Source: Minisyncoccota bacterium
GTDB taxonomy: Bacteria; Patescibacteriota; Minisyncoccia; Phycocordibacterales; UBA2100
Direction of reading: 5' to 3'
DNA: 64,000 nt
Assembly: GCA_036517195.1 (NCBI GenBank)
Contig: DATDXU010000005.1
Span: forward strand, 4,975-68,974
The notes beneath the pieces were generated by a model. The model was not told where the DNA came from. It saw only the letters and a program-made list of their open reading frames with translations, and searched no databases. Positions 1-16,654 of this stretch are shown one piece after another (position 1 is the first letter of the stretch; the number at the start of each line of letters is the position of its first letter). The position numbers were made by a program, and so were the translations under genes.

Positions 1-203
1 AAGAGCGCGGCATGTCTCTCGGCGCATCTACGAAAATTGAGTGGGGAAGTCAAATTCGTTCCTACGTTCTGCATCCGTACACATTAGTGAAAGACCATCG
101 CACGGAGCATGAGAGGCGCGACGCGGACAGAGTTCTTGAGGGAGATATTCAATCGTTTATTGATGCAGAAAAAAATTTGGATAGCTATGGGGGCGAGGTA
201 TAA
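1..203 (+). CDS. prfB: Peptide chain release factor 2, C-terminal fragment; the gene starts upstream of the window
   Basis: The C-terminal motif [20 protein letters not shown] is typical of RF2 and differs from RF1. The ORF runs into the window edge. Confidence 0.65.
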
Positions 204-261
204 TGGTCAGGTGTTTCTTGGTTTTCTGAAAGCTGATAGCTAGAAGCCGAAACCTATTTTT

Positions 262-942
262 ATGATTTATTACGACAAAGTAACAAAAGCATACAATGGT
301 GGCACGCCTGCGGTGTCCGATGTCACGCTCAGTGTTGACCCAGGTGAATTTGTGTCCATCGTTGGTCACTCCGGGGCAGGAAAAACAACTCTCTTAAAGC
401 TTTTATTTGCGGAGATAAAGCCGACGACGGGGTCTGTGTATTTTGGTTCGCAAGAAGTGCACCTGATGTCTCAAGCAGAACTTTTGAATTTGCGACGCAA
501 TATCGGTACTGTGTTTCAGGATTTTCGCCTTTTGCCGACCAAAAACGTATTCGAAAACATCGCGTTTGCGATGGAGGTGGCGGGGCATTCTGACGAAGAT
601 ATTCAGGCGGATGTGCCGCACGTGCTTGAATTGGTGGGGTTGTCTGAAAAGATTTGGAATTTTCCGCGCGAACTCTCCGGCGGGGAACAGCAGAGAATAG
701 CGATCGCGCGCGCAATCGTGAATCAACCAGACGTGCTTATTGCGGATGAGCCGACGGGGAACCTTGACCCCATAAACACGCACGATGTTGTTGAAATTTT
801 GAAGAAAATTAACGACCTTGGTACGACCGTGCTTTTAACGACGCACAACAAGTCGGTCATTGAATCTGTCGGCAGACGCGTGGTCACGATGGATCAGGGT
901 CGGATTGTGAGAGACGATAAGAGCGGAAAATATACTCTCTGA
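262..942 (+). CDS. ftsE: Cell division ATP-binding protein FtsE (ABC ATPase)
   Basis: Has a Walker A motif (GHSGAGKTT), the ABC signature LSGGEQQR and a Walker B motif (LIADEP). It is followed directly by ftsX. Confidence 0.85.
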   Translation: MIYYDKVTKAYNGGTPAVSDVTLSVDPGEFVSIVGHSGAGKTTLLKLLFAEIKPTTGSVYFGSQEVHLMSQAELLNLRRNIGTVFQDFRLLPTKNVFENIAFAMEVAGHSDEDIQADVPHVLELVGLSEKIWNFPRELSGGEQQRIAIARAIVNQPDVLIADEPTGNLDPINTHDVVEILKKINDLGTTVLLTTHNKSVIESVGRRVVTMDQGRIVRDDKSGKYTL

Positions 943-1006
943 AATTGGAAAGATGTTGCATGCTATGATTAAAAAGCTAGAAGCTAAAAACTAGCACCTA
1001 CAAGCT

Positions 1007-1933
1007 ATGAACACATGGGTAAATGTAAAAAGGGTGGCTCGCTATGGGCTTATAGGATTCATTAGAAATGGTTTTGTGTCGCTTGCCGCAATTGTGATTA
1101 TGGCTATCACGCTTTTTGTGGTGGCGGGACTTTTGATGGCTGGTTCTGCTCTTGAAAGCACGCTCGTGTATCTCACAGAAAAGGTTGATGTGAATGTGTA
1201 TTTTGTGACGAATGCCGAAGAACAACACATACTTGAGATGAAACGTTCCTTAGAGAGTTTGCCTGAAGTCGCGTCAGTGACGTACACCAATCGGGAACAA
1301 GCGATTGCAGAGTTTCGTGAACGTCACAAAAATGACCAGTTGATATTACAAGGGCTGGATGAACTTGAAAATAACCCTCTCGGCGCGTCACTTTCTGTTC
1401 GCGCGAAGGAGACTTCTCAATATGAATCCATTGCAAAATTTTTAGAAAACACACAGGAGTCGGGGGGCGCGGGCACTCTTATCGAAAAAGTTAATTTTCA
1501 TCAAAATAAAACAGCGATTGACAGGCTGTCTGGCGTTATTGGCGCCTCGCGCCAGATCGGCATTGTTTCCGCAAGCGTTTTCATTATCGCGACTATTTTG
1601 ATTGCTTTCAATACCGTACGACTTGCCATTTATACCGCGCGTGAAGAGATCGGTGTTATGAATATTGTGGGTGCATCGCGTTGGTATGTGCGCGGTCCGT
1701 TTGTTATCGCGGGGGTTCTCTATGGAGTTATTTCTGCACTCATTGTTTTAGTGATTTTATATCCGTTGACATACTCTCTTAGCGGTCCATCTGCCGACTT
1801 TTTTCCTGCATTTGATGTATTCGAACACTTTACCAACTCGTTTCCGTTTTATTTTCTCGTACTCGTAGGGTTTGGCGTGTGTCTGGGCGCCATCTCCAGC
1901 ATCCTTGCGATTCGGAGATATTTGAGCACGTAA
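1007..1933 (+). CDS. ftsX: Cell division permease FtsX
   Basis: Sits immediately after ftsE and shows FtsX topology, with an N-terminal TM helix, a periplasmic loop and three C-terminal TM helices. Confidence 0.8.
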   Translation: MNTWVNVKRVARYGLIGFIRNGFVSLAAIVIMAITLFVVAGLLMAGSALESTLVYLTEKVDVNVYFVTNAEEQHILEMKRSLESLPEVASVTYTNREQAIAEFRERHKNDQLILQGLDELENNPLGASLSVRAKETSQYESIAKFLENTQESGGAGTLIEKVNFHQNKTAIDRLSGVIGASRQIGIVSASVFIIATILIAFNTVRLAIYTAREEIGVMNIVGASRWYVRGPFVIAGVLYGVISALIVLVILYPLTYSLSGPSADFFPAFDVFEHFTNSFPFYFLVLVGFGVCLGAISSILAIRRYLST

Positions 1934-1937
1934 CGCC

Positions 1938-3596
1938 ATGTCTACAAGCAAAGCAATGCGGGGACATAAGTATATTTTTGTTGTTGGGGGTGTTATGTCG
2001 GGGGTCGGGAAGGGGGTCGCGACCGCAACGATAGGGAAGTTACTCTCTGCTCGAGGGCTTTCTGTTAATCTCGTTAAAATTGACCCTTACCTCAATGTGG
2101 ACGCGGGAACGATGAACCCGACAGAGCACGGTGAGGTGTTCGTGCTTGATTCCGGACTTGAGTGCGACCAGGACATGGGCAACTACGAGCGTTTTTTGAA
2201 CCGTGATTTGGGACCGGAAGATTATATGACGAGCGGTATGGTGTACCGCACGGTGATTGAGCGCGAGCGCGCGCTGGGCTACGGCGGGAAATTTGTAGAA
2301 ACGATTCCGCATGTGCGCGATGAAATTGTGCGTCGCCTAGAGCACGCTGCACGCAAGAGCGGGTCTGATGTTTCGGTTGTTGAAATTGGGGGTACTATTG
2401 GGGATTTTCAAAATGCGCTCTATATTGATGCGGCACGCGTCATGCGCTTACAGAGTCCGTCGGATGTTCTTGTTGTTATGGTTTCGTACCTTCCCGTGCC
2501 CGGAACAATCGGGGAAATGAAAACAAAGCCGACACAGAATGCTGTACGTCAGCTTAATTCCTACGGCGTTCAGCCGGATATTATTGTTGCCAGAAGCGCG
2601 GTCGCGCTTGACCAGAGACGGAAAGAAAAACTTGCTGTGTGGTGTAACGTTGACGCGGAGCACATTATTTCTGCGCCCGATGTCGCATCCATTTACGATG
2701 TGCCGATTAACTTTGAACACGATCATCTTTCCGATATTGTATTGAAAGCGCTTGGAAAGAAGGGACGCGCGGATTCTGATTTGTCGGAATGGAAAAAATT
2801 TGTGAATCAGACTCATGGGAAAGGGGGTGGGGTGAAAATCGGTATTGTGGGGAAATATTTTGATACGGGGGATTTTGTTCTTTCCGACGCATACATTTCC
2901 GTGATTGAGGCGCTCAAATTTTCCGCGTATGCCGAAGGGTTAAAACCAGAGATACAGTGGCTAAACGCAAAGGAGTATGAGAAAAATCCTCCGAGCGTAA
3001 AAGAGTTGAAAGGGTATGACGGAATCGTGGTTCCTGGAGGATTTGGAGAAACGGGGGTGGAGGGGAAAATAAACGCAATCAAGTTTGTGCGTGAAAACAA
3101 AATTCCATACCTCGGTCTTTGTTACGGTCTCCAACTTGCGATTGTGGAGTACGCGCGAAGTGTTGCTGGATTGAAGGGGGCGCACACGACGGAAATAAAT
3201 TCTAAAACACCGCACCCCGTAATTGCTGTTTTGCCGGAGCAGGTGGAAAAATTAGCACGCCGTGAATATGGAGCAACAATGCGCCTTGGGGCGTATCCGT
3301 GCGTGTTGAAAGGGGGGACTATTGCTGGAGAGGCGTATGGGAAAAAACTTGTGTCCGAGCGTCACAGACATCGCTTTGAAGTGAATCCCGACTACATTGA
3401 ACAGCTCGAGAAAGCGGGAATGATATTTTCAGGGTCTTCTCCAGACAGACATCTTATGGAAATTGCGGAGCTTCCGAAGAGTGCGCATCCGTTTTTCCTC
3501 GGCACGCAATTTCATCCGGAATTCCGCGCGCGCCCCCTCTCTCCGCATCCACTATTCACCGCGTTCATCAAAGCCGCACACAAGAAGATCGCATAG
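1938..3596 (+). CDS. pyrG: CTP synthase
   Basis: The N-terminus KYIFVVGGVMSGVGKGV matches CTP synthase. A glutamine amidotransferase class-I domain (GLCYGLQ) is present. It lies 4 bp after ftsX. Confidence 0.9.
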   Translation: MSTSKAMRGHKYIFVVGGVMSGVGKGVATATIGKLLSARGLSVNLVKIDPYLNVDAGTMNPTEHGEVFVLDSGLECDQDMGNYERFLNRDLGPEDYMTSGMVYRTVIERERALGYGGKFVETIPHVRDEIVRRLEHAARKSGSDVSVVEIGGTIGDFQNALYIDAARVMRLQSPSDVLVVMVSYLPVPGTIGEMKTKPTQNAVRQLNSYGVQPDIIVARSAVALDQRRKEKLAVWCNVDAEHIISAPDVASIYDVPINFEHDHLSDIVLKALGKKGRADSDLSEWKKFVNQTHGKGGGVKIGIVGKYFDTGDFVLSDAYISVIEALKFSAYAEGLKPEIQWLNAKEYEKNPPSVKELKGYDGIVVPGGFGETGVEGKINAIKFVRENKIPYLGLCYGLQLAIVEYARSVAGLKGAHTTEINSKTPHPVIAVLPEQVEKLARREYGATMRLGAYPCVLKGGTIAGEAYGKKLVSERHRHRFEVNPDYIEQLEKAGMIFSGSSPDRHLMEIAELPKSAHPFFLGTQFHPEFRARPLSPHPLFTAFIKAAHKKIA

Positions 3597-3727
3597 TGTA
3601 AATAAAAAAACGCCCAGGTTGAATGTGCCTTGCGAACAGTTGACAGTGTGTATTGAATATGCTACAAGATGTTTTGCGTCCTTTGACATAGACATAACAA
3701 AATTTCCGTCATTGTGCTGGAGGCCCC

Positions 3728-4819
3728 ATGGAAGCCCAGTATCTTTTGTTAGTACTCCTATTGTTTCCCGTGCTATGGCCTTTCGTTGCAAAACGAATCT
3801 GGCACCAAGATATCTCGTGGACAGAGATGGGACTTAACATAGGTCTTGTTGGACTTCTCGTGGTCGCTATTTTCTATGCTGGTCATTATGCGCAAACAGC
3901 GGATACAGAAATATGGAATGGCGCGGTGACTGGGAAGGAGAAGGAGTGGACCTCTTGCGAGCACAGCTACAGCTGTAATTGCAGAGAATCGTGTTCTGGG
4001 TCTGGCAAAGATAGGTCGTGTAGCGAAGTATGCGACACGTGCTATGAACACAGCAACGATTGGAATTGGAAAGTGCGGACCACCATAGGCAACTTCAACA
4101 TATCCCGCATTGACTCTAGGGGTAGTAAAGAGCCACCTCGTTGGTCTAAAGTTGCTTCCGGTCAGCCGGTGGCGTTTGAAAAACCGTACGTGAATTATAT
4201 AAAGGCAGTGCCGGAGTCACTATTTCACTTCAACAGCAGTTTAAAAGAACAGCATGAAAAACTGCTCGTCCGGTATCCGCGAGTATTTGATTACCATTAC
4301 GCGAATCGGGTAATTCCGGTTGGCGTTACGCTTCCGGACATTGAAGCGTGGAACTATGAGCTCGCGCTCATGCTCCGAGAACTTGGCCCGAAGAAGCAAG
4401 CGAACATCGTTTTGATTGTGGTGAAAACGCCCGATCAGGGATACGCTCACGCCATCGAGGCGCACTGGCTTGGTGGCAAGAAGAACGATGTGGTCGTGGT
4501 GCTCGGTGTTCCCGAGTATCCGAATATCGGATGGGCATACATCATGAGCTGGACCGATAGTCAGATATTCAAAGTCCAACTGCGTGATGCACTGCTCGCG
4601 CTTGGCACTGTGGAAAAAGATGCGGTGTTGCGGACAATTCATCAGCACGTTGCAACAACATTTGTACGCAAACCCATGGCGGACTTTGCGTATTTAAAGG
4701 ATGAAATACGTCCTCCTACCTGGGTCATTGTGTTTGCGGCCATGTTCGGAATTTTGGGCAGCATAGGACTCAGCTTTCTGTTCCGCCAAAAAGATGTGAA
4801 CTTAACCCTTGGAAAATGA
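3728..4819 (+). CDS. Hypothetical membrane protein with a cysteine-rich region (about 10 Cys in 45 aa)
   Basis: Two N-terminal TM helices, the CEHSYSCNCRESCSGSGKDRSCSEVCDTCYEH cluster and a C-terminal TM helix. I recognised no known family. Confidence 0.4.
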   Translation: MEAQYLLLVLLLFPVLWPFVAKRIWHQDISWTEMGLNIGLVGLLVVAIFYAGHYAQTADTEIWNGAVTGKEKEWTSCEHSYSCNCRESCSGSGKDRSCSEVCDTCYEHSNDWNWKVRTTIGNFNISRIDSRGSKEPPRWSKVASGQPVAFEKPYVNYIKAVPESLFHFNSSLKEQHEKLLVRYPRVFDYHYANRVIPVGVTLPDIEAWNYELALMLRELGPKKQANIVLIVVKTPDQGYAHAIEAHWLGGKKNDVVVVLGVPEYPNIGWAYIMSWTDSQIFKVQLRDALLALGTVEKDAVLRTIHQHVATTFVRKPMADFAYLKDEIRPPTWVIVFAAMFGILGSIGLSFLFRQKDVNLTLGK

Positions 4820-4832
4820 AAGGAACGAAACA

Positions 4833-5429
4833 ATGAGCGCGGGTAAAGTAACAGCCATTCTTGTTGCTGGAGTCTTCGCCCTTGGAGCCCTGGCATGTGC
4901 CATAGGCTTTATTGGTGCCTGGAATCTTGGCAACAGGCTAGAACAGGGAGTCCATGCGTCCTGGGAAAACAACAAACAAATCCTAGGGCAGTATGGGCAA
5001 AAAATCCAAGAAATGGCGCAGGTGCCGGAAATACAGCGGGACGACTTGATCGCCGTTTTCACCAAAGCGAACGAGTCGCGGTATGGGAAAACGGGGTCAG
5101 CCGCGGTGGTGCAGTGGATCCAAGAACAAAATCCGAACTTGGACCCCTCTACGTACAAGGGAATTCAGCAGGCGATCGAGGCCGGTCGAAATGAATTTCA
5201 GGCGGCGCAACAGACAATAACCGACAAAAAGCGCGCCTATAGAACGGAACTCGGCTCGCTTTGGGGCGGGTTCTGGCTAAAGATGGCTGGATACCCAACT
5301 ATCAAGATTGGGTATCCGATCGGCACAGAGGATGCATATCCGGTTATCTCGACCTCGAGAGCCGATGATGCATTCAAGAAGGGTCGGGAGGATGCCCCCC
5401 TGAAGTTGCGCCCGCAAGAACCAAAGTAA
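4833..5429 (+). CDS. Hypothetical membrane-anchored protein, weakly LemA-like
   Basis: An N-terminal TM helix followed by a helical domain. The sequence AWN...SW loosely resembles the LemA paralog at 31490. Its start overlaps the stop of the upstream ORF. Confidence 0.35.
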   Translation: MSAGKVTAILVAGVFALGALACAIGFIGAWNLGNRLEQGVHASWENNKQILGQYGQKIQEMAQVPEIQRDDLIAVFTKANESRYGKTGSAAVVQWIQEQNPNLDPSTYKGIQQAIEAGRNEFQAAQQTITDKKRAYRTELGSLWGGFWLKMAGYPTIKIGYPIGTEDAYPVISTSRADDAFKKGREDAPLKLRPQEPK

Positions 5430-5446
5430 GCAACACATCGAATGTG

Positions 5447-5484
5447 GCGCCGCGGGCAACACCCCGCGGCGTTTTTATTTTTTG
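5447..5484 (+). terminator. Rho-independent terminator
   Basis: GC stem GCCGCGGG / CCCGCGGC followed by TTTTTATTTTTTG. Confidence 0.55.
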
Positions 5485-5544
5485 TCCTCGCAGGGAGTGA
5501 TGTTTTAGTGTATCCACGCACCAAAGGATCACCGCGTTATATAA

Positions 5545-5579
5545 GGCGGTATTAGATCCTTGGTGCGGGATTCCGCACC
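5545..5579. repeat. Copy A of a palindromic repeat family with core GGTGCGGGATTYCGCACC
   Basis: Related copies lie at 30800-30833 and 60629-60662. The internal inverted repeat is GGTGCGG/CCGCACC. Confidence 0.5.
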
Positions 5580-5653
5580 GCGAGCAAGCTTTTGGGCTTT
5601 GTTACAAACGTTTGGTATCATGAGCTTGCTCGCGGTGCTTCATTTTAATTCTT

Positions 5654-5704
5654 TGCGGGATCATCTAGTGGTAGGACTTCTCCCTCTGGAGGAGAGTATC
5701 TTGG
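5654..5704 (+). pseudogene. Truncated tRNA-Gln-like fragment (5' 51 nt, D-arm and anticodon arm only)
   Basis: Matches the first 51 nt of the intact tRNA-Gln at 5774 with 2 mismatches, then diverges. It has no T-arm and no acceptor 3' strand. Confidence 0.5.
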
Positions 5705-5773
5705 CCCGCCCCGTTAGATATTTTTGTAGAATACGCGGTTGATACTACAATACACACAGCTTGTTTCCATCGC

Positions 5774-5844
5774 TGCGGGATCGTCTAACGGTAGGACTTC
5801 TCCCTCTGGAGGAGAGTATCTTGGTTCGAGTCCAAGTCCCGCAG
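5774..5844 (+). tRNA. tRNA-Gln (anticodon CTG)
   Basis: Hand-folded cloverleaf with acceptor TGCGGGA/TCCCGCA, anticodon loop CTCTGGA and T-arm CTTGG-TTCGAGT-CCAAG. Confidence 0.75.
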
Positions 5845-5900
5845 CGATGGGCGTAAGCATGCAGATGCCAGTAGTATATGTATATCTAACGGGGTGAAAA

Positions 5901-5915
5901 TCCAAGTCCCGCAGC
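5901..5915 (+). repeat. 15-nt duplicate of the tRNA-Gln 3' end (TCCAAGTCCCGCAGC)
   Basis: Identical to 5831-5845. It abuts the left direct repeat of the islet. Confidence 0.6.
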
Positions 5916-5950
5916 CAGGTTTGAGATAGGTTCGGACTCCGAGGAGCATT
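5912..5950. repeat. Left direct repeat of the islet (CAGCCAGGTTTGAGATAGGTTCGGACTCCGAGGAGCATT)
   Basis: Repeated at 7574-7610 with a single 1-nt indel. Confidence 0.75.
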
Positions 5951-5957
5951 AAAAACT

Positions 5958-6341
5958 ATGAATAATCAAAACAAAGAACCTTGGCAAATAACAGCAGCTC
6001 GGTTTTGCGTAGAGAGAAAAGAGTTTACCTTAAGGGGGTTGGAGACTTTTTTGAAGGAAGAACCGTACAACATTCCTCACGAACACGTAAGAAATTTTTT
6101 CATAGAAAATATTCAAAATCCTCCAGGGCGACAATTCAACAGAGATTTTCGAAAGAGTGCCGAAGGAGAAGGTGGATTGTGGACTGCTCCTTCTGACCTT
6201 GTATCCATGGTGACAGATTATGATGAATTGAGAGAGGCAAGAGAGAGTAGTAGAAAGGCAATGTATATTGCAATCGGGTCTTTGATCGTTGCTACACTAG
6301 TTGGCATTGCTCAAATCATTGTACAGATTTATTACAAATAA
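5958..6341 (+). CDS. Hypothetical protein with a C-terminal TM anchor
   Basis: 127-aa ORF in the islet. The C-terminal hydrophobic helix is IAIGSLIVATLVGIAQIIV. Confidence 0.4.
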   Translation: MNNQNKEPWQITAARFCVERKEFTLRGLETFLKEEPYNIPHEHVRNFFIENIQNPPGRQFNRDFRKSAEGEGGLWTAPSDLVSMVTDYDELREARESSRKAMYIAIGSLIVATLVGIAQIIVQIYYK

Positions 6342-6345
6342 CTTT

Positions 6346-6783
6346 ATGAAGATAATTACTAAAAAGGAATCTGGCAATTCAGGAGAGCAAGAGATTGTAG
6401 ACCTTATCCCATGTCCGAATTGCGGGAAGAAATTGATGAAACTTCCATCAAACTATCCTTTATATGATGTCCAGTGCACTGGGTGTTCATTCCGTGCTCA
6501 AGTTAAAACAAATCAAAGTAAACCAAAATCAGTAGTTTTTGGAGCCGGGTGGCAAATTATGAACAAGGTATTGAAGTCTGGTTATATGACACCACCTCTT
6601 TTTCTAAACTTTAAATGGACAGAGAAAGATGATCAAAAACAAGAAGTCAGATTTTACCCCTTCGTGCCAAAGAAAAATCTCTCTAACTATCGTTTGTCTG
6701 CAACAGCACGTCGTGCAAATTATGAAATGTTTACCTATACGGGAATGGATAAGCTTCCGTATTTTCTAGTATATAAAAAATGA
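6346..6783 (+). CDS. Hypothetical zinc-ribbon protein
   Basis: CPNCGKK...x16...CTGCSF is a pair of CxxC motifs. It overlaps the next ORF by 4 bp (ATGA). Confidence 0.4.
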   Translation: MKIITKKESGNSGEQEIVDLIPCPNCGKKLMKLPSNYPLYDVQCTGCSFRAQVKTNQSKPKSVVFGAGWQIMNKVLKSGYMTPPLFLNFKWTEKDDQKQEVRFYPFVPKKNLSNYRLSATARRANYEMFTYTGMDKLPYFLVYKK

Positions 6784-7478
6784 ACAAGATTCAGGATGAC
6801 ATATTAAGTTATCGTGAGATGTGTGACGCAGAAAATATACAGACACTCCAGCGCGGTATGAATTTTCGAATGAAACCAACATACTCTGTTATTTTGATGT
6901 CTCAAAGATCAAACGCACCGTATCAAGATAGAATTCACGAAGACGGCATAACGATTGAATATGAGGGTCACGATGTTTCTAAAAGAGCTCACGACCATAA
7001 TCCAAAGGCCGAGGATCAGCCAGACAAGTTACCGAGTGGTCGATTAACTCAAAATGGATATTTCATAAAAGCCGCTAAAGACTATAAGGAAAGAGGAACT
7101 GCCCCAGAGTTGGTAAAAGTATATGAAAAGGTATTTCCCGGCGTGTGGTCTCTAAAGGGATTTTTTGATCTAATAGATTACAAAATATTTAATGATGGAA
7201 AACGTAATACGTTTCGTTATATTTTAAGACTTTCTGATCATGGAGAGACGGACACGAGGGTACCGACAAACATCGAACATACTCGCCTAATACCTTCAGA
7301 TGTAAAAAGAGAAGTTTGGAAACGGGATCAGGGTAAATGTGTAATCTGTGGAAATTCTAAGAATTTACACTTCGACCATGATTTACCATTTTCTAGGGGT
7401 GGAACCAGTTTATCAGCAAAGAATGTACGCCTGCTTTGTGTGACTCATAATCTTCAGAAATCAGATAAAATTGAATAG
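6780..7478 (+). CDS. Predicted modification-dependent (type IV-like) restriction endonuclease with an N-terminal SRA/YDG-like domain and a C-terminal HNH nuclease
   Basis: The C-terminus CVICGNSKNLHFDHDLPFSRGG...NVRLLCVTHN is an HNH His-Me finger. The N-terminal block YSVILMS...YQDRIHEDGITIEYEGHD plus VKVYEKVFPGVWSLKGFFDLIDYKI resembles the SRA motifs [26 protein letters not shown] and RYDGIYKVV. This comparison was made from memory, with no search. Confidence 0.55.
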   Translation: MNKIQDDILSYREMCDAENIQTLQRGMNFRMKPTYSVILMSQRSNAPYQDRIHEDGITIEYEGHDVSKRAHDHNPKAEDQPDKLPSGRLTQNGYFIKAAKDYKERGTAPELVKVYEKVFPGVWSLKGFFDLIDYKIFNDGKRNTFRYILRLSDHGETDTRVPTNIEHTRLIPSDVKREVWKRDQGKCVICGNSKNLHFDHDLPFSRGGTSLSAKNVRLLCVTHNLQKSDKIE

Positions 7479-7573
7479 TTGCTCGTTCCTGAAGAGCATC
7501 AAAATAGTAAACTTAAAAGCGTCAGAAAAGCTTTATGGGGTCTCACTTTGAAAAATACGAGACCGAAGGGGTC

Positions 7574-7610
7574 AGCCAGTTTGAGATAGGTTCGGACTCC
7601 GAGGAGCATT
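7574..7610. repeat. Right direct repeat of the islet
   Basis: CAGCCAG-TTTGAGATAGGTTCGGACTCCGAGGAGCATT matches 5912-5950. Confidence 0.75.
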
Positions 7611-7618
7611 GTATCTAT

Positions 7619-8212
7619 ATGCTAAAAATTAGTTTGAGCAAGTATCAACTGAACGAATGTTTAAATTCGTTTTGTTGGACTTTTAAGATTGGCGATAACA
7701 TTCTTTATAATTTAGATCTCATATTCCAACTTGTGGACGACCACAATAAGCTAGCGGGGCGCAAATATGCTAAGCCCATATCAATACTCTGTGTCTCAGT
7801 TATAGAGGGAGCACTTGTTGATTTTTTAGAACGTTTAGATTCTGCAACGCGACATTTCCCGAGTAAACTAGACTCGAAAAAAAAGGACATAAAGAAAGAA
7901 TTAGAGGGAAAAAAGAATGATTTTGAGATAATCTACAAAGGGAAGGTTTATAAGTATAAACGACTAAAAAATTTCGGGTACAAAGAATTGATAAAGTTTT
8001 ACGAGGATTTTAAGATTCTAGGTTCAAGGTCTGCCGATTATCAGATACTGCAAGAGCTGGGTCGTTTCCGCAATCGGGTCCATATTCAAAATTACTTTAG
8101 AAACTTTGAACAAAATGAGTCCTGTACATTCTCTGAAAACAGAAGCCAGAGAGCTATTGATTACATGGAAAGTGTATTTAAATACCTTAGTAAAAACTAT
8201 CCGCGCCCATAA
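7619..8212 (+). CDS. Hypothetical protein from AT-rich DNA, possibly HEPN/Abi-like
   Basis: K/E-rich protein of about 197 aa in low-GC DNA just outside the right direct repeat. ELGRFRNRVHIQ resembles the Rx4-6H motif of HEPN/Abi_2 proteins, but this is weak. Confidence 0.35.
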   Translation: MLKISLSKYQLNECLNSFCWTFKIGDNILYNLDLIFQLVDDHNKLAGRKYAKPISILCVSVIEGALVDFLERLDSATRHFPSKLDSKKKDIKKELEGKKNDFEIIYKGKVYKYKRLKNFGYKELIKFYEDFKILGSRSADYQILQELGRFRNRVHIQNYFRNFEQNESCTFSENRSQRAIDYMESVFKYLSKNYPRP

Positions 8213-8348
8213 TTCATTTTCATTGTTGTCTCAGCTTCGGCCCACTCAGCTGTTCCGAGAAGGGTCGAAATGGTAGAATAAAAGTAATCAAAAAAGTCTT
8301 ATAGAGCTTGATGGGTAAATTTACAAGATCGAGAGGGCCAGCAAAAAT

Positions 8349-8597
8349 ATGATAAAAAAGCTCGCCATTGGTACAGTACATAAACTGCCGGAGGATTTAC
8401 AAAAAGCACTCACATCTTCCGCTAAGGTGCAAAAACTATGGGAAGACATCACGCCGCTCGCGCGCAATGAGTGGATATGCTGGGTCATCTCCGGGAAACG
8501 TGCGGAGACGAGGGGAATTCGAGTTGAGAAGGCGCTCTCGAAACTTAAAGATGGAATGCGCAGGCCGTGTTGCTGGGCTGGTTGTCCTCACCGTTGA
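8349..8597 (+). CDS. YdeI/OmpD-associated family small protein (DUF-type)
   Basis: The 82-aa sequence LPEDLQKAL...AKVQKLWEDITPLARNEWICWVISGKRAETRGIRVEKALSKLKDG has the pattern of that family. Confidence 0.45.
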   Translation: MIKKLAIGTVHKLPEDLQKALTSSAKVQKLWEDITPLARNEWICWVISGKRAETRGIRVEKALSKLKDGMRRPCCWAGCPHR

Positions 8598-8820
8598 TGA
8601 ACGAAGGTAAGGAAATACTGAGCCGAGCGCGGCGAAGTGTTGAAAACATCCGAAGCGTTTTATGATTTCGAGAATACTGAGCACGATAGTGAGAATGTGC
8701 CAATAGAAATTTTTAATATTTCCGATGTTTTGTAATTTCTAAAACCCAAAACGCAACGAGCGTTGCAAAAAATCTTAAAAAATCCTTGCGTCTTTGTAAT
8801 GACTTGGTACACTATTTTAA

Positions 8821-10254
8821 ATGGCGAACAAACAAAATGGTGTGCATGCAAAATGCGAAGGCAAGTTAGTGATGATTGGTTTCGGCTCAATCGGGCAGGG
8901 AGTGCTTCCGCTCATACTTCGTCACATAGGTATTGATAAAAAAGACATCACAATCATTAGCGCCGACGGTAAGGGAAAATCAGTTGCAGAAAAAGAAGGC
9001 GTTGAACTTAAACTTTCTCCCCTCAACCCTCAAAATTTTAGAAAAGTACTCGACGAATATCTGGGGCCAGGCCCGGGTGGGTTCGTACTCAACCTTTCCG
9101 TTGACGTTTCATCGGTCAATCTCATTCAATACTGTCAAGAGCGCAAGGCCCTCTATTTAGACACCTGTATTGAGCCGTGGACTGGTGGATATGTAGACCC
9201 AACCCTCACATTTTCCCAGCGCTCCAATTACGGATTGCGCGAAACGGCCCTCGCGCTTCGGGAGAAATATATTGGTGGCTCCACTGCCGTTGTCGCTCAT
9301 GGCGCAAATCCGGGGATTGTGTCTCATTTTCTCAAGCGCGCACTTCTTCAAATTGCTAAAGACACGGAGTATGCGAAAGAGGAGCCGACGAAAAAAGCGG
9401 AGTGGGCGTCGTTGATGAAAGGTCTCGGTATAAAGAGTGTTCACATAGCGGAGTATGATTCGCAAGTTGCAAAAAATCCGAAAAAAATAGGGAGGTTTGA
9501 AAATACGTGGTCTGTCTACGGTTTTCACGCCGAAGGATTGTGCCAGCCGTCGGAATTGGGATGGGGAACGCATGAAAAAGAAATGCCGAAAGGTGCGAGC
9601 GCCCACGACTTCGGTTGTGGTGCTGGTATTTATTTAGACCGGCCAGGTGCCACGACATTGGTGCGCACGTGGACACCGAAGCACGGCAGTTTCAACGGGA
9701 GGGCGGTAACGCACAATGAATCAATTTCCATCGCTGATTTTTATACTATTCGCAGAGGAGATAAGGTTACGTATCGGCCGACGGTTCATTACGCGTATCG
9801 CCCATGTGACGCCGCAATGCTTTCTCTCGAAGAGGCGTTTGGCAACAATTTGAATCTCCAAAACGAACAACTTATTCTTTCGGATGAAATCCAAAGTGGA
9901 ATGGATGAACTCGGGGTACTTCTTATGGGGCACGCGAAAGGTGCATACTGGTACGGCTCACAGCTTACAATTGAAGAAGCAAGAAAACTCGCCCCTTATC
10001 AAAATGCCACGGGACTCCAAGTAACCGCGGGAGTCTTGGCTGGAATGGTGTGGGCGATAGAAAATCCGACTTCGGGAATTGTTGAAGCGGATGATGTTGA
10101 CTACAAACGCGCCATGGAAATCCTTGAGCCGTATATGGGAACGATGGTGGGGGAATATAGTGATTGGACTCCGCTTAAGGGGCGAAGCAGTCTCTTTCCG
10201 GAAGAAGCGGACAGGGAAGATGTGTGGCAGTTCAAAAATTTTCTTGTTGATTAG
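8821..10254 (+). CDS. hss: Homospermidine synthase
   Basis: The N-terminus MIGFGSIGQG is a Rossmann NAD-binding site, and the length and overall pattern match bacterial homospermidine synthase. Confidence 0.7.
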   Translation: MANKQNGVHAKCEGKLVMIGFGSIGQGVLPLILRHIGIDKKDITIISADGKGKSVAEKEGVELKLSPLNPQNFRKVLDEYLGPGPGGFVLNLSVDVSSVNLIQYCQERKALYLDTCIEPWTGGYVDPTLTFSQRSNYGLRETALALREKYIGGSTAVVAHGANPGIVSHFLKRALLQIAKDTEYAKEEPTKKAEWASLMKGLGIKSVHIAEYDSQVAKNPKKIGRFENTWSVYGFHAEGLCQPSELGWGTHEKEMPKGASAHDFGCGAGIYLDRPGATTLVRTWTPKHGSFNGRAVTHNESISIADFYTIRRGDKVTYRPTVHYAYRPCDAAMLSLEEAFGNNLNLQNEQLILSDEIQSGMDELGVLLMGHAKGAYWYGSQLTIEEARKLAPYQNATGLQVTAGVLAGMVWAIENPTSGIVEADDVDYKRAMEILEPYMGTMVGEYSDWTPLKGRSSLFPEEADREDVWQFKNFLVD

Positions 10255-10312
10255 AGTGGGGCGGTATGTTCCATGTCTCTGGATGAGTTTTGGAATGTGT
10301 GAACATACACCG

Positions 10313-10338
10313 TTCTAGCTTTTTGCAAAAAGCTAGAA
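10313..10338. promoter_or_regulatory. Perfect 12-2-12 palindrome TTCTAGCTTTTT-GC-AAAAAGCTAGAA (site 1), a putative ArsR-family operator upstream of the regulator gene
   Basis: Identical 26-mers occur at 10603-10628 and 58939-58964. A 12-2-12 dyad is the classic operator architecture for ArsR/SmtB regulators. Confidence 0.55.
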
Positions 10339-10355
10339 TATAATGACGTACACAT

Positions 10356-10631
10356 ATGGCGCAAGAAAAATATCGCGTGTTGGAACGGATTATAAAAGGT
10401 TTTGCGAACCATCGGCGGCTCGCAATTCTTGATTTGTTGAAAAAGAGGCCAGAGCAGACTCTCGACGATATTGTGGAGACACTCGGCATTGGGTACCAAA
10501 ACGCATCGGATCATGTGCGCAAACTTGCGATTGCGGGTCTCGTGGCAAAGCGTAGTGACGGCTTGAATGTGCGACACAAACTTACGCCACGCGCAGAAAC
10601 CATTCTAGCTTTTTGCAAAAAGCTAGAATAA
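10356..10631 (+). CDS. ArsR/SmtB-family HTH transcriptional regulator
   Basis: The 91-aa protein has an HRRLAILDLL...LDDIVETLGIGYQNASDHVRKL winged helix. Confidence 0.7.
   Translation: MAQEKYRVLERIIKGFANHRRLAILDLLKKRPEQTLDDIVETLGIGYQNASDHVRKLAIAGLVAKRSDGLNVRHKLTPRAETILAFCKKLE
10603..10628. promoter_or_regulatory. Palindrome site 2, overlapping the last codons and stop of the ArsR-like gene and upstream of a small Cys-rich ORF
   Basis: Identical 26-mer. The stop codon TAA lies at 10629-10631. Confidence 0.5.
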
Positions 10632-10750
10632 GAAACTTTGCATCTCTTTGTTCCGAGGCGTAAAGGATCATTTTTTGTAAGGATGCTTTGTTTCTCTTTC
10701 TCCAGTGATATGATTTTGAGAGGTGGAGTAATGCAAAAAAGAGGTGATCT

Positions 10751-10969
10751 GTGGGCGATACAGTTATGCGTAGAAAATGCGCGCGCAAGAAGTACGGCCG
10801 CGGACAGTGGCTATGCGAGTGCAACGGAAATATTCGGAAGGATAATCAATGCACTGGCATAGGGTGTCTGGAGTATTACGAGCGCATAGGTGGCACAGAT
10901 TCTCCCGCGTACAAGACATTGCTCGCTGCAATTGCGGAAGATGAAAGAGATGACAAGAAACAGTCCTGA
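10751..10969 (+). CDS. Small cysteine-rich protein (5 Cys in about 68 aa), possibly metal-binding
   Basis: KCARKKYGRGQWLCECNGNIRKDNQCTGIGC. It lies downstream of the ArsR-family gene and palindrome site 2 and is followed by a terminator. Confidence 0.3.
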   Translation: MGDTVMRRKCARKKYGRGQWLCECNGNIRKDNQCTGIGCLEYYERIGGTDSPAYKTLLAAIAEDERDDKKQS

Positions 10970-10978
10970 TGTGTAACA

Positions 10979-11005
10979 GCGACCCGCAGAGCGGGTCGCG
11001 TTTTG
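10979..11005 (+). terminator. Rho-independent terminator
   Basis: GCGACCCGC-AGA-GCGGGTCGC followed by GTTTTG. Confidence 0.55.
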
Positions 11006-11020
11006 TAATATAATTGAATT

Positions 11021-11710
11021 ATGGTGCCCTTTGAATACGTGTATATGGTTGGTGCGTCTATGCTCTTTATTCCGTGGGTTATTTTTTTCGTTGTAAGACC
11101 TGACGTGCGGAGAGAAATGCTTGTCATGAGTTTTTTGCTCGGTGTTTTGAGTGTTGTAACTGCGCAGTACTGGTGGACTGTGGATTGGTGGAAACCCGAA
11201 ACGATAACAGGCACGATTGTTGGCATTGAGGATTTTCTGATTGGTTTTGCGAGTGGTGGAATCATGACAGTTGCCTATGAGGTTTTGTTCAGGAAGCGTT
11301 TATACAAAAGTGTTTCTAGCGTACGAGCGCCAGGTCCGTTTACTCTACTGCTGTTACTCGCTTTTATAACCTCATGGTTATTTTGGGCAGCACACCTCAC
11401 TTCTTTTTGGGGAAGCACGCTGGCAATGGCGGCGGTTGCGAGCGTTCTTTTCTATTTTAGAAAGGACCTGTTTTTGAACGCAGTGTTAAGCGGTATTTTA
11501 ATGGCAGGCATCTCGTTACTTTTTTACTTCACAGTCATGTCCCTTTCTCCTGAGTGGATTCCAAAAACATATCAATTTGAAACATTAAGTGGAATTCTTG
11601 TACTCGGTGTTCCTGCGGAGGAGTTTGTATTTTGGTTTCTTGCGGGGCTCGTATTCGGGCCATTCTATGAATATTGGCAAGGTAAAAGAACAAGGAATAT
11701 CAGTACATAG
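11021..11710 (+). CDS. Polytopic membrane protein, possibly a lycopene-cyclase-domain family member
   Basis: Has 6-7 TM helices. The acidic motifs GIEDFLIGF and PAEEFVFWF recall the PxEE(F/L) motifs of CrtYcd-type domains. Confidence 0.35.
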   Translation: MVPFEYVYMVGASMLFIPWVIFFVVRPDVRREMLVMSFLLGVLSVVTAQYWWTVDWWKPETITGTIVGIEDFLIGFASGGIMTVAYEVLFRKRLYKSVSSVRAPGPFTLLLLLAFITSWLFWAAHLTSFWGSTLAMAAVASVLFYFRKDLFLNAVLSGILMAGISLLFYFTVMSLSPEWIPKTYQFETLSGILVLGVPAEEFVFWFLAGLVFGPFYEYWQGKRTRNIST

Positions 11711-11713
11711 CAT

Positions 11714-12145
11714 ATGAAAAAGACCATTTCAATACTGGTACTCGCGTGCGCAGTCTTCGCTCTGTGGTATTTTTTGTCTGACGCACCAGGCAATGACTCG
11801 CGGGTAGTGTATGTGAATAGTTCTGCCGATCTTATTCGTGTTGAGGGGCCCTTGCCCGACGATTCTCTTGGCAAGACATTTACAGTTGAGGGCGAAGCTC
11901 GAGGGTTCTGGTTTTTTGAAAATTCTTTTCCCGTTGAAGTTCTCGATGCAAACGGTGTTGTCATTGGACGGGGACTCGGCGCAAGTAGTGAGGAATGGAT
12001 GACGGAGAATTTCATACCGTTTACGGCTCCTGTGGAAATTGTCGGTGAATATACGGGACAGGCAACACTTGTGCTCAAAAAAGACAATCCTTCCGGTGAT
12101 CCTGATCGAGACGCGTCGGTGTCTTTTGTGGTGTCGATATATTAA
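11714..12145 (+). CDS. Hypothetical secreted protein
   Basis: N-terminal signal/TM helix MKKTISILVLACAVFALW followed by a beta-rich domain. Confidence 0.4.
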   Translation: MKKTISILVLACAVFALWYFLSDAPGNDSRVVYVNSSADLIRVEGPLPDDSLGKTFTVEGEARGFWFFENSFPVEVLDANGVVIGRGLGASSEEWMTENFIPFTAPVEIVGEYTGQATLVLKKDNPSGDPDRDASVSFVVSIY

Positions 12146-12183
12146 CCAAAACGAGGGCTACTTTTTGTTGTATACTGGACACT

Positions 12184-12504
12184 ATGACACTGGAAGATGG
12201 AATATCGAGGCAGGGGCGCGTGCGCCCTATTGAGCATGGGGAAGAGCGCATCGCATTTTCCGCACTTAGGTATAGGGGAGAAATCTTCACTGGCGCAAAT
12301 CACGGCGATGCACTCATTGATCTTGAGGAGACACACCCAGATTTTGTGGGACGGGAAGTTGATGATGGTTTTACTACTTCTAGTGGGAGGTTTGTGGACA
12401 GAGTTGAGGCGTATACAATTGCGCGCAGTCAAGGCCAGCTGAAGCAGCGGTTTATTAGCTACAAAGGGGAGGGTGATTTAGACAGCAATTACCTACTTTC
12501 CTAG
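12184..12504 (+). CDS. Hypothetical protein
   Basis: 106-aa ORF with no recognisable motif. Confidence 0.3.
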   Translation: MTLEDGISRQGRVRPIEHGEERIAFSALRYRGEIFTGANHGDALIDLEETHPDFVGREVDDGFTTSSGRFVDRVEAYTIARSQGQLKQRFISYKGEGDLDSNYLLS

Positions 12505-12539
12505 CTTATTGCGAAGTAGTGTTTTAAAATACAACATAT

Positions 12540-12998
12540 ATGCCACGAACATTAGTTGTGATAATTGGTCTTGTCTTGGTGGGAGGGGGTTTGTATATAT
12601 GGTCTTCTGGCTCTTGGGTGGGGAGCACGAAAGTAGATGATACAAAAATCGGTGGGGGTGTCGTTGTTTCTCAAGCGGCGGGGTTGTATGGCGCGTATGA
12701 AGCGTATGCGCCGGAGAAACTTATGCGCGCGAGCGCGGAGAGATCCGTCGTTTTGTTTTTTCGCGCCGACTGGTGTCCGACATGTCGAGCGCTTGACGCG
12801 GACATTCGTTCAAAACTTGAAACAATTCCACAAAACGTGAGCATTTTGTACCTCAATTACGACACAGAAACGGCTCTCAAACAGAAATATGGCGTCACCT
12901 ATCAGCACACGCTAGTGCAGGTTGATGCCGAGGGAAACCAGATTGTTAAGTGGAGCAAATCTCCAACACTTGAAGATGTGCTGCTGAACATCAAATAG
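12540..12998 (+). CDS. Membrane-anchored thioredoxin-family protein
   Basis: An N-terminal TM helix and the WCPTC active site. Confidence 0.6.
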   Translation: MPRTLVVIIGLVLVGGGLYIWSSGSWVGSTKVDDTKIGGGVVVSQAAGLYGAYEAYAPEKLMRASAERSVVLFFRADWCPTCRALDADIRSKLETIPQNVSILYLNYDTETALKQKYGVTYQHTLVQVDAEGNQIVKWSKSPTLEDVLLNIK

Positions 12999-13003
12999 GT
13001 AGC

Positions 13004-13729
13004 ATGGCGTTTCTTATCATTTCGTTCATCGCGGGTGTCTTGACGGTTCTTGCTCCCTGCATTCTTCCGCTTTTGCCTGTTGTTATCGGCTCTTCCGCCA
13101 CAGGCAGGAGCAAAACCACTCCGTATATTGTCGTCGGCTCGCTCTCTGTTTCAATAATTCTTTTCACCTATGTTCTTAAGGCATCAACGGTGTTCATTAT
13201 GGTGCCTCCATATGTGTGGACGTATCTTTCCGGAGGCATTCTCGTTGCGTTTGGACTTTTTCTTGCTTTTCCAGCCCTATGGGAGAGTATGCCGGGACTT
13301 TCGAAATTCGCCGGGGATTCAAACAAATTTGTCGGTGCTGGGTATCAGCGCAAAAGTTTTTGGGGCGACGTGTTAATTGGCGCGGGGTTGGGTCCCGTGT
13401 TCACGAGCTGTTCGCCGACATACTTTGTAATTCTTGCCTCGGTATTGCCTGCTAGCTTTGCGCTTGGCACGGCGTACTTGTTTGCTTACGTGCTTGGGCT
13501 TGGGCTCGTTCTTCTTCTCGTGGCACTTCTGGGCGAACGGTTTGCGAATCGGTTGAGTATTCTGTCTGACTCTCGCGGACTGTTGAAGCGAGGGGTCGGC
13601 GTTCTTTTCATTCTCATTGGTATTGCGATTGCGACAGGGTATGAGAAGAGGATAGAGGTTGCAATTCTGGATGCGGGCTGGTTTGATATCACAAAGGTTG
13701 AGCGTGCCTTATTAGAAAAAATTCAATAA
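13004..13729 (+). CDS. ccdA: Cytochrome c-type biogenesis / thiol-disulfide transporter CcdA (DsbD transmembrane domain)
   Basis: LTVLAPCILPLLP near the N-terminus, a second conserved Cys region (SCSPT) and 6 TM helices. Confidence 0.7.
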   Translation: MAFLIISFIAGVLTVLAPCILPLLPVVIGSSATGRSKTTPYIVVGSLSVSIILFTYVLKASTVFIMVPPYVWTYLSGGILVAFGLFLAFPALWESMPGLSKFAGDSNKFVGAGYQRKSFWGDVLIGAGLGPVFTSCSPTYFVILASVLPASFALGTAYLFAYVLGLGLVLLLVALLGERFANRLSILSDSRGLLKRGVGVLFILIGIAIATGYEKRIEVAILDAGWFDITKVERALLEKIQ

Positions 13730-13732
13730 TAT

Positions 13733-14800
13733 ATGCGCATGGAATACGCGATTGGTTTATTGGTATTGGTGGTGGCGGGTGTTGGGCTCGCGATTTTGTA
13801 CACCCCCGTGTCTCCTAAGGCATCTAAGGGTTCTCCCTCTAGTGTTGCCAAGCAACAAGGGGACCCTTACAGAGAAATAGCAAACCCTGCTGGATTTGTG
13901 AACACGGACGGCATAACGATAAAAGAGTTGGTCGGCACAAAAGTCATTATTGTTGATTTTATGACGTACAGCTGTATCAACTGCCAGCGCACATTTCCGT
14001 ATTTGAACGCGTGGTACAAAAAATACAAAGACCAGGGTCTTGAAATCGTTGGGATTCACACGCCAGAGTTTGCGTTTGAAAAAAACATAGACAATGTGCG
14101 CGATGCGATGAAACGATTTGGCATTATGCATCCGGTTGTTTTAGACAACGACTATGGGACATGGAACGCATATGGGAACAGGTACTGGCCAAATAAATAT
14201 GTAATCGATATACACGGAAATATTGTGTACAGTCATGCTGGTGAAGGTGCATACGAGGAAACAGAGATGAAAATTCAGGAACTTCTTCGTGAGCGGGCTG
14301 AAGTTCTCGGCAGCTCCGTTGCCTTCGCTGGCGAGCTTGCTTCGTCTGACATGCCGCCTTTAAAAAATTTCGCGCGCAGTCCGGAAACGTATTTCGGGGC
14401 GTGGCGCAATGAGTATTTTGCAAACGGGATGCCGGGGAGGGAGGGTGAGCAGACACATGCGCTTCCGGATACGCTTATGCGCAATGCTCTGTATTTGGAT
14501 GGCACATGGAATATTGAGGACCAGTTTGCGGAATCGGTCAGAGATTCCAGCGTATTCTATCGTTACAATGCGGGGGATGTATTTATTGTCGCTGATGCGG
14601 ACAATCCTATTTCTGTAGAAGTATTTCAAGACGGAAAGCGAATAGACGTTGCTGCGGGTGCAGATGTTAGGGACGGAATTGTCACTATGCAAGAGAGTCG
14701 ATTGTACAAGTTGATTCACAACCGAGAGCCAGGAGAACACACGCTCGAACTTCGTGTCGGAGGAAAAGGGTTGCGTTTCTATGCATTTACGTTCGGGTGA
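13733..14800 (+). CDS. TlpA/ResA-like thiol-disulfide oxidoreductase with a C-terminal extension
   Basis: An N-terminal TM helix and a redoxin fold with the CINC active site (DFMTYSCINCQRTFPYL). Confidence 0.6.
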   Translation: MRMEYAIGLLVLVVAGVGLAILYTPVSPKASKGSPSSVAKQQGDPYREIANPAGFVNTDGITIKELVGTKVIIVDFMTYSCINCQRTFPYLNAWYKKYKDQGLEIVGIHTPEFAFEKNIDNVRDAMKRFGIMHPVVLDNDYGTWNAYGNRYWPNKYVIDIHGNIVYSHAGEGAYEETEMKIQELLRERAEVLGSSVAFAGELASSDMPPLKNFARSPETYFGAWRNEYFANGMPGREGEQTHALPDTLMRNALYLDGTWNIEDQFAESVRDSSVFYRYNAGDVFIVADADNPISVEVFQDGKRIDVAAGADVRDGIVTMQESRLYKLIHNREPGEHTLELRVGGKGLRFYAFTFG

Positions 14801-14831
14801 TTTAAAGCACTCTCTGGTGTAGTATCAATAG

Positions 14832-16652: not shown

Positions 16653-16654
16653 CT

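Follow-up and report, generated by a model that had tools for sequence, protein, structure and literature searches.

Introduction

Several kinds of described system resemble parts of the locus reported here, a low-GC islet of four open reading frames (ORF1–ORF4) beside a tRNA-Gln gene in a 64,000-nucleotide stretch of contig DATDXU010000005.1, from a genome of the Paceibacteria (Patescibacteria/candidate phyla radiation, CPR). The whole stretch is called the window below. SRA-HNH enzymes comprise TagI, ScoA3IV/Sco5333, TbiR51I and, with an extra sulfur-binding domain, ScoMcrA; those that have been characterised, such as TagI with its pocket residues Tyr55, Asp58 and Tyr67, are homodimers acting alone (PMC6212794). 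The DpnI/Dam-replacing family (PF06044) contains Type IIM nucleases dependent on Gm6ATC. HEPN toxins and abortive-infection proteins include MNT-HEPN (e.g. SO_3166) and the HEPN parts of AbiA, LsoA/RnlA and Csm6. The arrangement of the genes recalls integron cassette arrays (Vibrio VCR) as well as tRNA-linked islands and hotspots exchanged by recombination, of which the minimal mobile elements of Neisseria are an example. Patescibacteria themselves are ultra-small and have tiny genomes with few recognised defences.

With a probability of roughly 0.6, we read the islet as a foreign, integrase-less, variable array of independently mobile defence-type cassettes located 3' of tRNA-Gln. This reading draws on what is shown directly: which domains the proteins carry, that the genes occur independently, how widely and where the repeats are dispersed, the association with tRNA-Gln and the foreign composition. 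It differs from the original prediction, which regarded the four genes as one candidate undescribed defence module integrated at the tRNA between direct repeats. The closest protein relatives of the window bear the names Paceibacterota or Patescibacteria.

Gene layout and composition

The four ORFs lie in the same direction on the + strand, with tight spacing, downstream of tRNA-Gln(CTG). ORF1 (5958–6341, 127 aa) is separated by 4 nt from ORF2 (6346–6783, 145 aa), the reading frame of which shares 4 bp (ATGA) with that of ORF3 (6780–7478, 232 aa); ORF4 (7619–8212, 197 aa) completes the set. The co-directional order, the 4-bp overlap and the coordinates agree with what had been reported by eye, as does the low GC content, estimated then at ~38% against ~50%. 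The computed values are 0.374 for 5951–8212 and 0.483 ± 0.013 for equal-sized windows from the rest of the 64 kb (z = -8.5), and this segment is the GC minimum of the whole window. At third codon positions GC is 0.32–0.37 in ORF1–ORF4 versus 0.48–0.52 in the next two genes. The composition of the islet is foreign. No integrase, recombinase or transposase domain was recorded among the called genes at positions 1–17478 of the window, in keeping with the earlier statement that an integrase is lacking.

Predicted modification-dependent nucleases

By its sequence and its structural model, ORF3 is a predicted SRA-HNH modification-dependent endonuclease of the TagI/ScoA3IV architectural class (PMC6212794). 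On its own the protein matched the Pfam HNH family with an E-value of 1e-3, under the gathering threshold. In a 40-sequence alignment of its family, HNH was matched by 31 members (best E-value 7.6e-12) and SAD_SRA (PF02182) by 18 (best E-value 8e-8). The PHROG HNH families were matched at 1.6e-9. The family profile matches the SRA domain of SUVH5 (3q0b) across residues 21–151. The AlphaFold2 model (predicted local distance difference test, pLDDT, 86) gave Foldseek E-values of 1e-6 with SUVH5/6, MspJI, ScoMcrA and UHRF1 as the top matches. Profile searches and fold thus both bear out the SRA-like/HNH nuclease that had been proposed at this position. PADLOC returned only weak REase_II matches.

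The likeness to the SRA-HNH enzymes extends from the N-terminal SRA fold to an HNH domain at the C-terminus, of beta-beta-alpha-Me type and with CxxC...C zinc ligands. This domain has three invariant cysteines (C187, C190 and C220) and carries the motifs D-H198 and H223-N. In sequence alignment Y48, D50 and Y61 fall on the Tyr/Asp/Tyr pocket positions (GGY-N-D...Y) of the SUVH5 SRA domain; Y61 is conserved in at least 90% of the family, while Y48 and D50 are common and not invariant. In contrast, there is no direct sequence match between ORF3 and TagI, and of these enzymes only ScoMcrA appears among the fold matches. ORF3 is also short (232 aa) and often encoded alongside a DpnI-like gene. The protein would flip 5-methyl- or 5-hydroxymethylcytosine into the SRA pocket, whereupon the HNH domain would cut nearby DNA, a Type IV restriction activity. 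Its family is very large, highly conserved and Patescibacteria-wide, with more than 7960 proteins (72–90% identity among the best 120 listed) and 9423 representatives of 50% clusters.

ORF2 is a predicted nuclease of the PD-(D/E)XK type that consists of the DpnI catalytic domain only. It matches the Pfam DpnI family (PF06044) with an E-value of 3.9e-10 and 40.1 bits (cut-off 26.7) over profile positions 31–144 of 183, the PADLOC model mREase_II at 1.9e-7, and the DpnI structure 4esj over DpnI residues 36–141 of 257. It had been described as an uncharacterised zinc-ribbon protein. The cysteine pairs stand, since two CxxC pairs give four Cys that are invariant in the family and serve as the zinc ligands of the DpnI likeness, and "uncharacterised" gives way to a DpnI-family nuclease domain. 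The Asp and Lys of the motif D41..Q52-V-K54 align with those of the DpnI D...E-x-K motif. ORF2 differs from DpnI in its length (145 aa vs 254 aa), ending at residue 145 with no C-terminal winged-helix domain of the kind that reads N6-methyladenine (m6A), and in an invariant Gln at the position of the catalytic Glu, so that the full D...E-x-K triad is absent. The D..QxK motif was invariant in all 13 members aligned, from a family of 1565 proteins. ORF2 may act on m6A-containing DNA. A truncated ORF2 in strain contig L003 (related loci and strain contigs carry L numbers here) reflects only a difference in gene calling, the DNA there being identical.

ORF1 and ORF4

ORF1 is an orphan tail-anchored membrane protein. 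A hydrophobic C-terminal helix at about residues 100–125 can be read directly from the sequence, in agreement with the transmembrane anchor proposed earlier. Searches of Pfam, PADLOC and NCBIfam gave nothing significant for it, and a homologue was absent from all related loci fetched.

ORF4 begins at the ATG at 7619 rather than at 7535, because its 28 homologues are all about 197 aa long from that start; the 7535 start given by the mechanical ORF listing and by gene callers (225-aa product) runs in frame through the intergenic repeat. The family numbers 29 proteins. ORF4 has the helical-bundle HEPN fold and an invariant R151-N-R-V-H155 motif, i.e. Rx3H. Of the Rx(3-5)H motif in the original prediction, the HEPN-like R..H pair therefore stands in its Rx3H form, and the arginine of Rx5H (R149) is found in 17 of 25 members only. 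No matches to Pfam (including its HEPN families), PADLOC, NCBIfam or PDB sequence profiles were found, and Foldseek matches were not significant. ORF4 departs from the known HEPN toxins and abortive-infection proteins in having Rx3H in place of Rx4-6H, in an inserted beta-hairpin (residues 99–116), in matching no HEPN Pfam family and in having no antitoxin-like neighbour. We infer that it would be a stand-alone RNase of abortive-infection or toxin type.

Independence of the genes

In the related loci the four genes are not tied together: homologues of ORF2, of ORF3 and of ORF4 are each found on their own, and ORF2-ORF3 is the only pair that recurs, and not obligatorily. The pair, with its 4-bp overlap and in the same order, is present in three genomes (the window, L007 and L009). 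ORF3 homologues with 78–81% identity are found without ORF2 after an unrelated 236-aa gene (L010) and after a Schlafen-type helicase in a defence island (L013). ORF2 homologues with 79–86% identity are found without ORF3 beside a type I restriction-modification system (L115/L116) and before a PIN-like gene (L117). Homologues of ORF4 (60–72% identity) stand alone in variable regions of L016, L019 and L020, near genes for type I R, GmrSD, Fic and EcoRI methylase.

That the four ORFs make up a single novel multi-gene defence system moving as a unit, in which a HEPN effector would work together with two nucleases and a membrane protein, is accordingly highly improbable. All four are co-directional, tightly spaced and held in a single low-GC block, and in L007 DpnI-like and SRA-HNH genes are again followed by an adjacent gene of the HEPN kind, a distant member of the ORF4 family (hhalign probability 98.9%). 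Such a system is nevertheless hard to reconcile with an ORF1 that has no homologue in any related locus, with ORF4 homologues in three other contexts that lack ORF2 and ORF3, with ORF2 and ORF3 homologues that are each found alone, with very unequal family sizes (more than 7960 for ORF3, 1565 for ORF2 and 29 for ORF4), and with a leader copy belonging to ORF4 itself. The single four-gene module proposed originally was not upheld, nor was its standing as a candidate undescribed defence system: because each gene belongs to a known kind, that expression overstates the case.

A narrower alternative is a modification-dependent nuclease with two obligate subunits, ORF2 and ORF3 (perhaps joined by ORF1), in which the DpnI-like subunit adds m6A reading or cutting of the second strand. 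The ATGA overlap and gene order kept in the window, L007 and L009 point in this direction, as does the unusual conservation of both proteins (ORF2 90%, ORF3 88%), and an ORF2 with no DpnI winged helix and with Gln for the catalytic Glu might need a partner. We regard this as unlikely, given that ORF3 homologues (78–81%) exist without ORF2 and ORF2 homologues (79–86%) without ORF3, and that TagI-type SRA-HNH enzymes work alone as homodimers (PMC6212794).

At L117 the 79%-identical ORF2 homologue (within 5001–6448) is followed by the PIN-like protein, whose match (E-value 9e-5) is just under the threshold, and by a GIY-YIG gene. The unit lies downstream of parA/parB, and is another pairing of a nuclease with an RNase-type protein.

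Intergenic leader repeats

The direct repeat, here called C, is exact over 32 nt (5919–5950 and 7579–7610; none expected by chance) and reaches 39 and 38 nt with one indel, much as the original prediction had described it (37–39 bp with one indel). The left copy (5912–5950, + strand) contains GGAG and ends 7 nt before the ATG of ORF1, and the right copy (7573–7610, + strand) ends 8 nt before the ATG of ORF4. A longer intergenic element, A/B (~93 nt), is located on the + strand at 7487–7579 (nhmmer E-value 2e-22) and 8253–8344 (1e-20), the second copy ending 4 nt before the ATG of the following OmdA-domain gene. No further copies of C or of the A/B elements were found elsewhere in the 64-kb window.

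Copies in other loci were located by blastn and nhmmer. Ten copies of C are distributed over the window, L007, L009, L016 and L112, all on the + strand and 7–40 nt before start codons. A/B is present in at least 18 copies in eight genomes or contigs (the window, L007, L009, L010, L016, L112, L113 and L114). The A/B/C block, comprising the right C copy and ~90 nt upstream of it, is conserved before the ORF4 homologue in L016, a different genome. Rather than an att (attachment) pair, the direct repeat is the 3' portion of an intergenic leader that occurs dispersed; C stands on both sides of ORF1–ORF3 simply because ORF4, the cassette that follows, has a copy of its own. At five loci of other genomes the leader repeat precedes start codons. 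The earlier interpretation of the repeats as islet boundaries and a mark of insertion does not survive this result, which is the dispersed-repeat outcome that the original prediction itself had named as contrary to it, though C stays tied to tRNA-Gln arrays. The leader contains GGAG and TGnTAGAAT-like motifs, and may serve as a leader or promoter.

It is also conceivable that the two C copies are the ends of a discrete 1.66-kb insertion (C, ORF1–ORF3 and A/B) before a resident C-ORF4, with C as the recombination site for cassette capture. The window copies are 100% identical, unlike those in other genomes; the A/B/C block before the ORF4 homologue in L016 indicates that the right copy belongs to ORF4; and in L007 and L009 C stands at the tRNA-proximal start of the ORF2-ORF3 cassette. 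Nevertheless, a genome with tRNA-Gln-C-ORF4 and no ORF1–ORF3 was not found, no recombinase is nearby, C has no conserved hairpin or covariation, and gene conversion could also make two copies identical. An insertion of this kind seems to us quite unlikely.

Other identities for the repeats were considered and rejected. A structured RNA was not supported by RNAalifold, which for 12 copies gave -1.8 kcal/mol and five pairs with no covariation or compensatory change, and Rfam (E-value ≤5) returned nothing except tRNA. Alignment to six tRNA-Gln sequences was no better than that of shuffles (p = 0.07–0.88), which speaks against a decayed tRNA-Gln. The ends are direct (TCCGAGGAGC) and not inverted, unlike attC-like sites. 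As for a phage origin, the leader pattern had no matches in viral_contigs, and PHROGs matches were limited to generic HNH families. A metagenome scan with a pattern for the A part yielded five stretches only, so that at this stringency the element cannot be called abundant.

The locus resembles integron arrays in having small same-strand cassettes with similar repeats of ~90–130 nt between them. It differs from them in that there is no intI and the repeats have no attC-like hairpin or covariation (RNAalifold). Moreover, the repeats lie upstream of genes, with Shine-Dalgarno-like and extended -10-like motifs, and the array is anchored on a tRNA.

A separate intergenic module, ACTGAGCCGAGC(G/A)CGGCGAAGTG, is shared between the window (8617–8639) and L007 (2487–2509), with 22 of 23 positions identical; in L007 the leader repeat follows it directly. 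In this part of the window the few single-nucleotide polymorphisms between strains (8616, 8618 and 8624) cluster at or beside the module.

The tRNA-Gln site

The intact tRNA-Gln (anticodon CTG; 5774–5845, + strand) was identified by ARAGORN and as Rfam RF00005 (56 bits). Around it are the remains of an older tRNA-Gln, all on the + strand: a 51-nt 5' fragment (positions 1–51 of the tRNA) at 5654–5704, 94% identical to 5774–5824 and reaching as far as the 5' strand of the T-stem, and a 3' fragment of 15 nt at 5901–5915, 100% identical to 5831–5845 (0.07 chance matches expected). Between the two lies a 196-bp insert (5705–5900) which carries the present tRNA, splits the older gene in the T-loop and has 13-nt perfect terminal inverted repeats (5709–5721 and 5882–5894; 0.07 chance matches expected). 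Read from the sequence, 5654–5704 joined through TTCGAG to 5901–5915 would restore a complete tRNA. The exact 15-nt copy of the tRNA 3' end to the left of the repeat, which it overlaps by 4 nt, is thus real. It and the 5654–5704 fragment are the two halves of an older tRNA-Gln split by the 196-bp insert, and do not flank the islet. The 15-mer lies on the tRNA side and has no distal counterpart in the 64 kb, and its interpretation as the integration signature of the islet is not supported. In L009 an 18-nt fragment (4960–4977) abuts the leader repeat as the 15-mer does in the window.

In relatives (L112 1560–1925, L007 2020–2470 and L016 4414–4736) a small GIY-YIG nuclease gene either separates a 5' fragment of tRNA-Gln from the intact tRNA-Gln or follows the tRNA directly, and L007 holds an additional tRNA-Gln-like copy. 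The tRNA insert of the window contains no GIY-YIG ORF. The arrangement suggests a unit of GIY-YIG gene and replacement tRNA whose insertion targets are tRNA-Gln genes.

Strain contigs break off or part from the window at the tRNA. One of them, L026, from the same study and 99.6% identical, diverges inside the tRNA-Gln gene (window 5745–5790, L026 2800–2906) and continues into a different tRNA-Gln-like sequence, and three further contigs end at 5761; it is thus precisely at the tRNA-Gln site that the population is heterogeneous.

A recurrent insertion hotspot

Wherever the flank suffices, the arrays start right after tRNA-Gln, in at least six divergent genomes (the window, L007, L009, L010, L016 and L112). 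L112 is syntenic with the window from pyrG (72% identity) to tRNA-Gln(CTG), but carries methyltransferase, hydrolase and NUDIX cassettes. L009 contains exact copies of the 3' end of its own tRNA-Gln, of 18 nt at the proximal junction with C and of 26 nt 4.9 kb downstream, a classic att-type signature. The tRNA-Gln gene is a recurrent insertion hotspot, because a relative retains this 26-nt distal repeat. Of the earlier proposal of integration at the tRNA, recurrent insertion at tRNA-Gln is thus supported by relatives, and the 15-mer and direct repeats as att signature in the window are not. ORF2 is 90% and ORF3 78–88% identical between genomes in which the adjacent dnaX (four genomes) is only 39–54% identical; therefore the cassettes move horizontally. 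In L009 a truncated ORF for a Y1 (IS200-like/RAYT) transposase (9487–9725) stops some 20 nt short of the distal 26-nt tRNA copy that closes the island.

As in tRNA-linked islands and recombination-exchanged hotspots, a block of foreign composition lies directly 3' of a tRNA, relatives carry different cargo at the same tRNA, and a distal repeat of the tRNA 3' end is found, in L009. The differences are that the window has neither an integrase nor a distal repeat, that a conserved leader repeat common to divergent genomes separates the cassettes, that a replacement tRNA sits inside nested tRNA fragments, and that relatives carry GIY-YIG genes.

On the reading of the islet as a variable cassette array, the array would have been acquired horizontally, its same-strand cassettes each preceded by copies of the common intergenic leader. 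The first cassette would be a tight operon of ORF1, ORF2 (a nuclease acting on m6A DNA) and ORF3 (Type IV restriction), and the second would be ORF4, a stand-alone HEPN-fold RNase. The 32–39-nt repeat would represent the start-codon-proximal part of the leader, with its GGAG. Cassettes would enter by recombination, with tRNA-Gln and the leader repeats as anchors. A bolder proposal, which we put forward tentatively and hold to be rather unlikely, is that this clade of Paceibacteria has a previously undescribed, integrase-less platform for cassette capture anchored on tRNA-Gln. Same-strand genes, for defence and for other functions, would each bring along or pick up a conserved leader of ~35–130 nt; they would be exchanged between genomes with ~40–50% core identity and would always land 3' of tRNA-Gln. 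The GIY-YIG gene and replacement tRNA-Gln may then be a selfish driver by which the site is broken and restored.

Several points weigh against an array of independently mobile cassettes. An empty site was not found: two flank-based scans of genome_contigs gave no syntenic relative, the 198-aa upstream flank yielding no relative and the 477-aa downstream flank almost only Proteobacteria (57–62% identity) with no synteny, and exact-protein look-ups of both flanks returned the same strain only. There is no distal tRNA repeat in the window, where the sole copies of the 15-mer (5831–5845 and 5901–5915) are both proximal, and the right boundary is therefore set by composition alone. The two window copies of C are 100% identical and copies in other genomes differ by 1–5 nt, an identity that could reflect a recent duplication or recombination event at C. 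Some functional coupling is possible in view of the 4-bp overlap of ORF2 and ORF3 in three genomes and the distant ORF4-family gene after ORF3 in L007, and the contexts sampled are a handful out of thousands of homologues. Finally, the Gln of ORF2 at the position of the catalytic Glu of DpnI makes its nuclease activity only putative.

Neighbouring genes and other features

The OmdA-domain gene (8349–8597, + strand, 82 aa, PF13376), which has a normal GC content, probably represents the cassette that comes next in the array; OmdA homologues sit within the equivalent arrays of L016, L020 and L010. Beyond it, a 477-aa homospermidine-synthase-like gene (8821–10254) has its best relatives, among species-representative genomes, in Alphaproteobacteria and other Proteobacteria (57–62% identity), with just one short Patescibacteria contig among them. 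This gene was probably transferred between phyla, and may be part of the same variable region. Upstream, a strong terminator-like hairpin (5446–5473; 11 pairs and a T-run) follows the 198-aa gene, and a perfect 16-nt inverted repeat (5575–5590 and 5623–5638) lies directly upstream of the tRNA fragments, spanning 5575–5638. The class A RNase P present in the 64-kb window marks it as bacterial.

Conclusions

Patescibacteria hold very widespread and highly conserved predicted modification-dependent nucleases, of SRA-HNH and DpnI-domain-only type, together with a HEPN family that lacks annotation. All three families are barely flagged by standard defence finders, PADLOC giving only weak REase_II matches for ORF3 and nothing for ORF4. 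The locus suggests that tRNA-Gln serves distant lineages as a common exchange site, at which cassettes with the same leader move between them. If this is true, the site would be a practical place for mining new accessory and defence genes of the CPR, and would offer a handle on gene flow in organisms without obvious mobile-element machinery.

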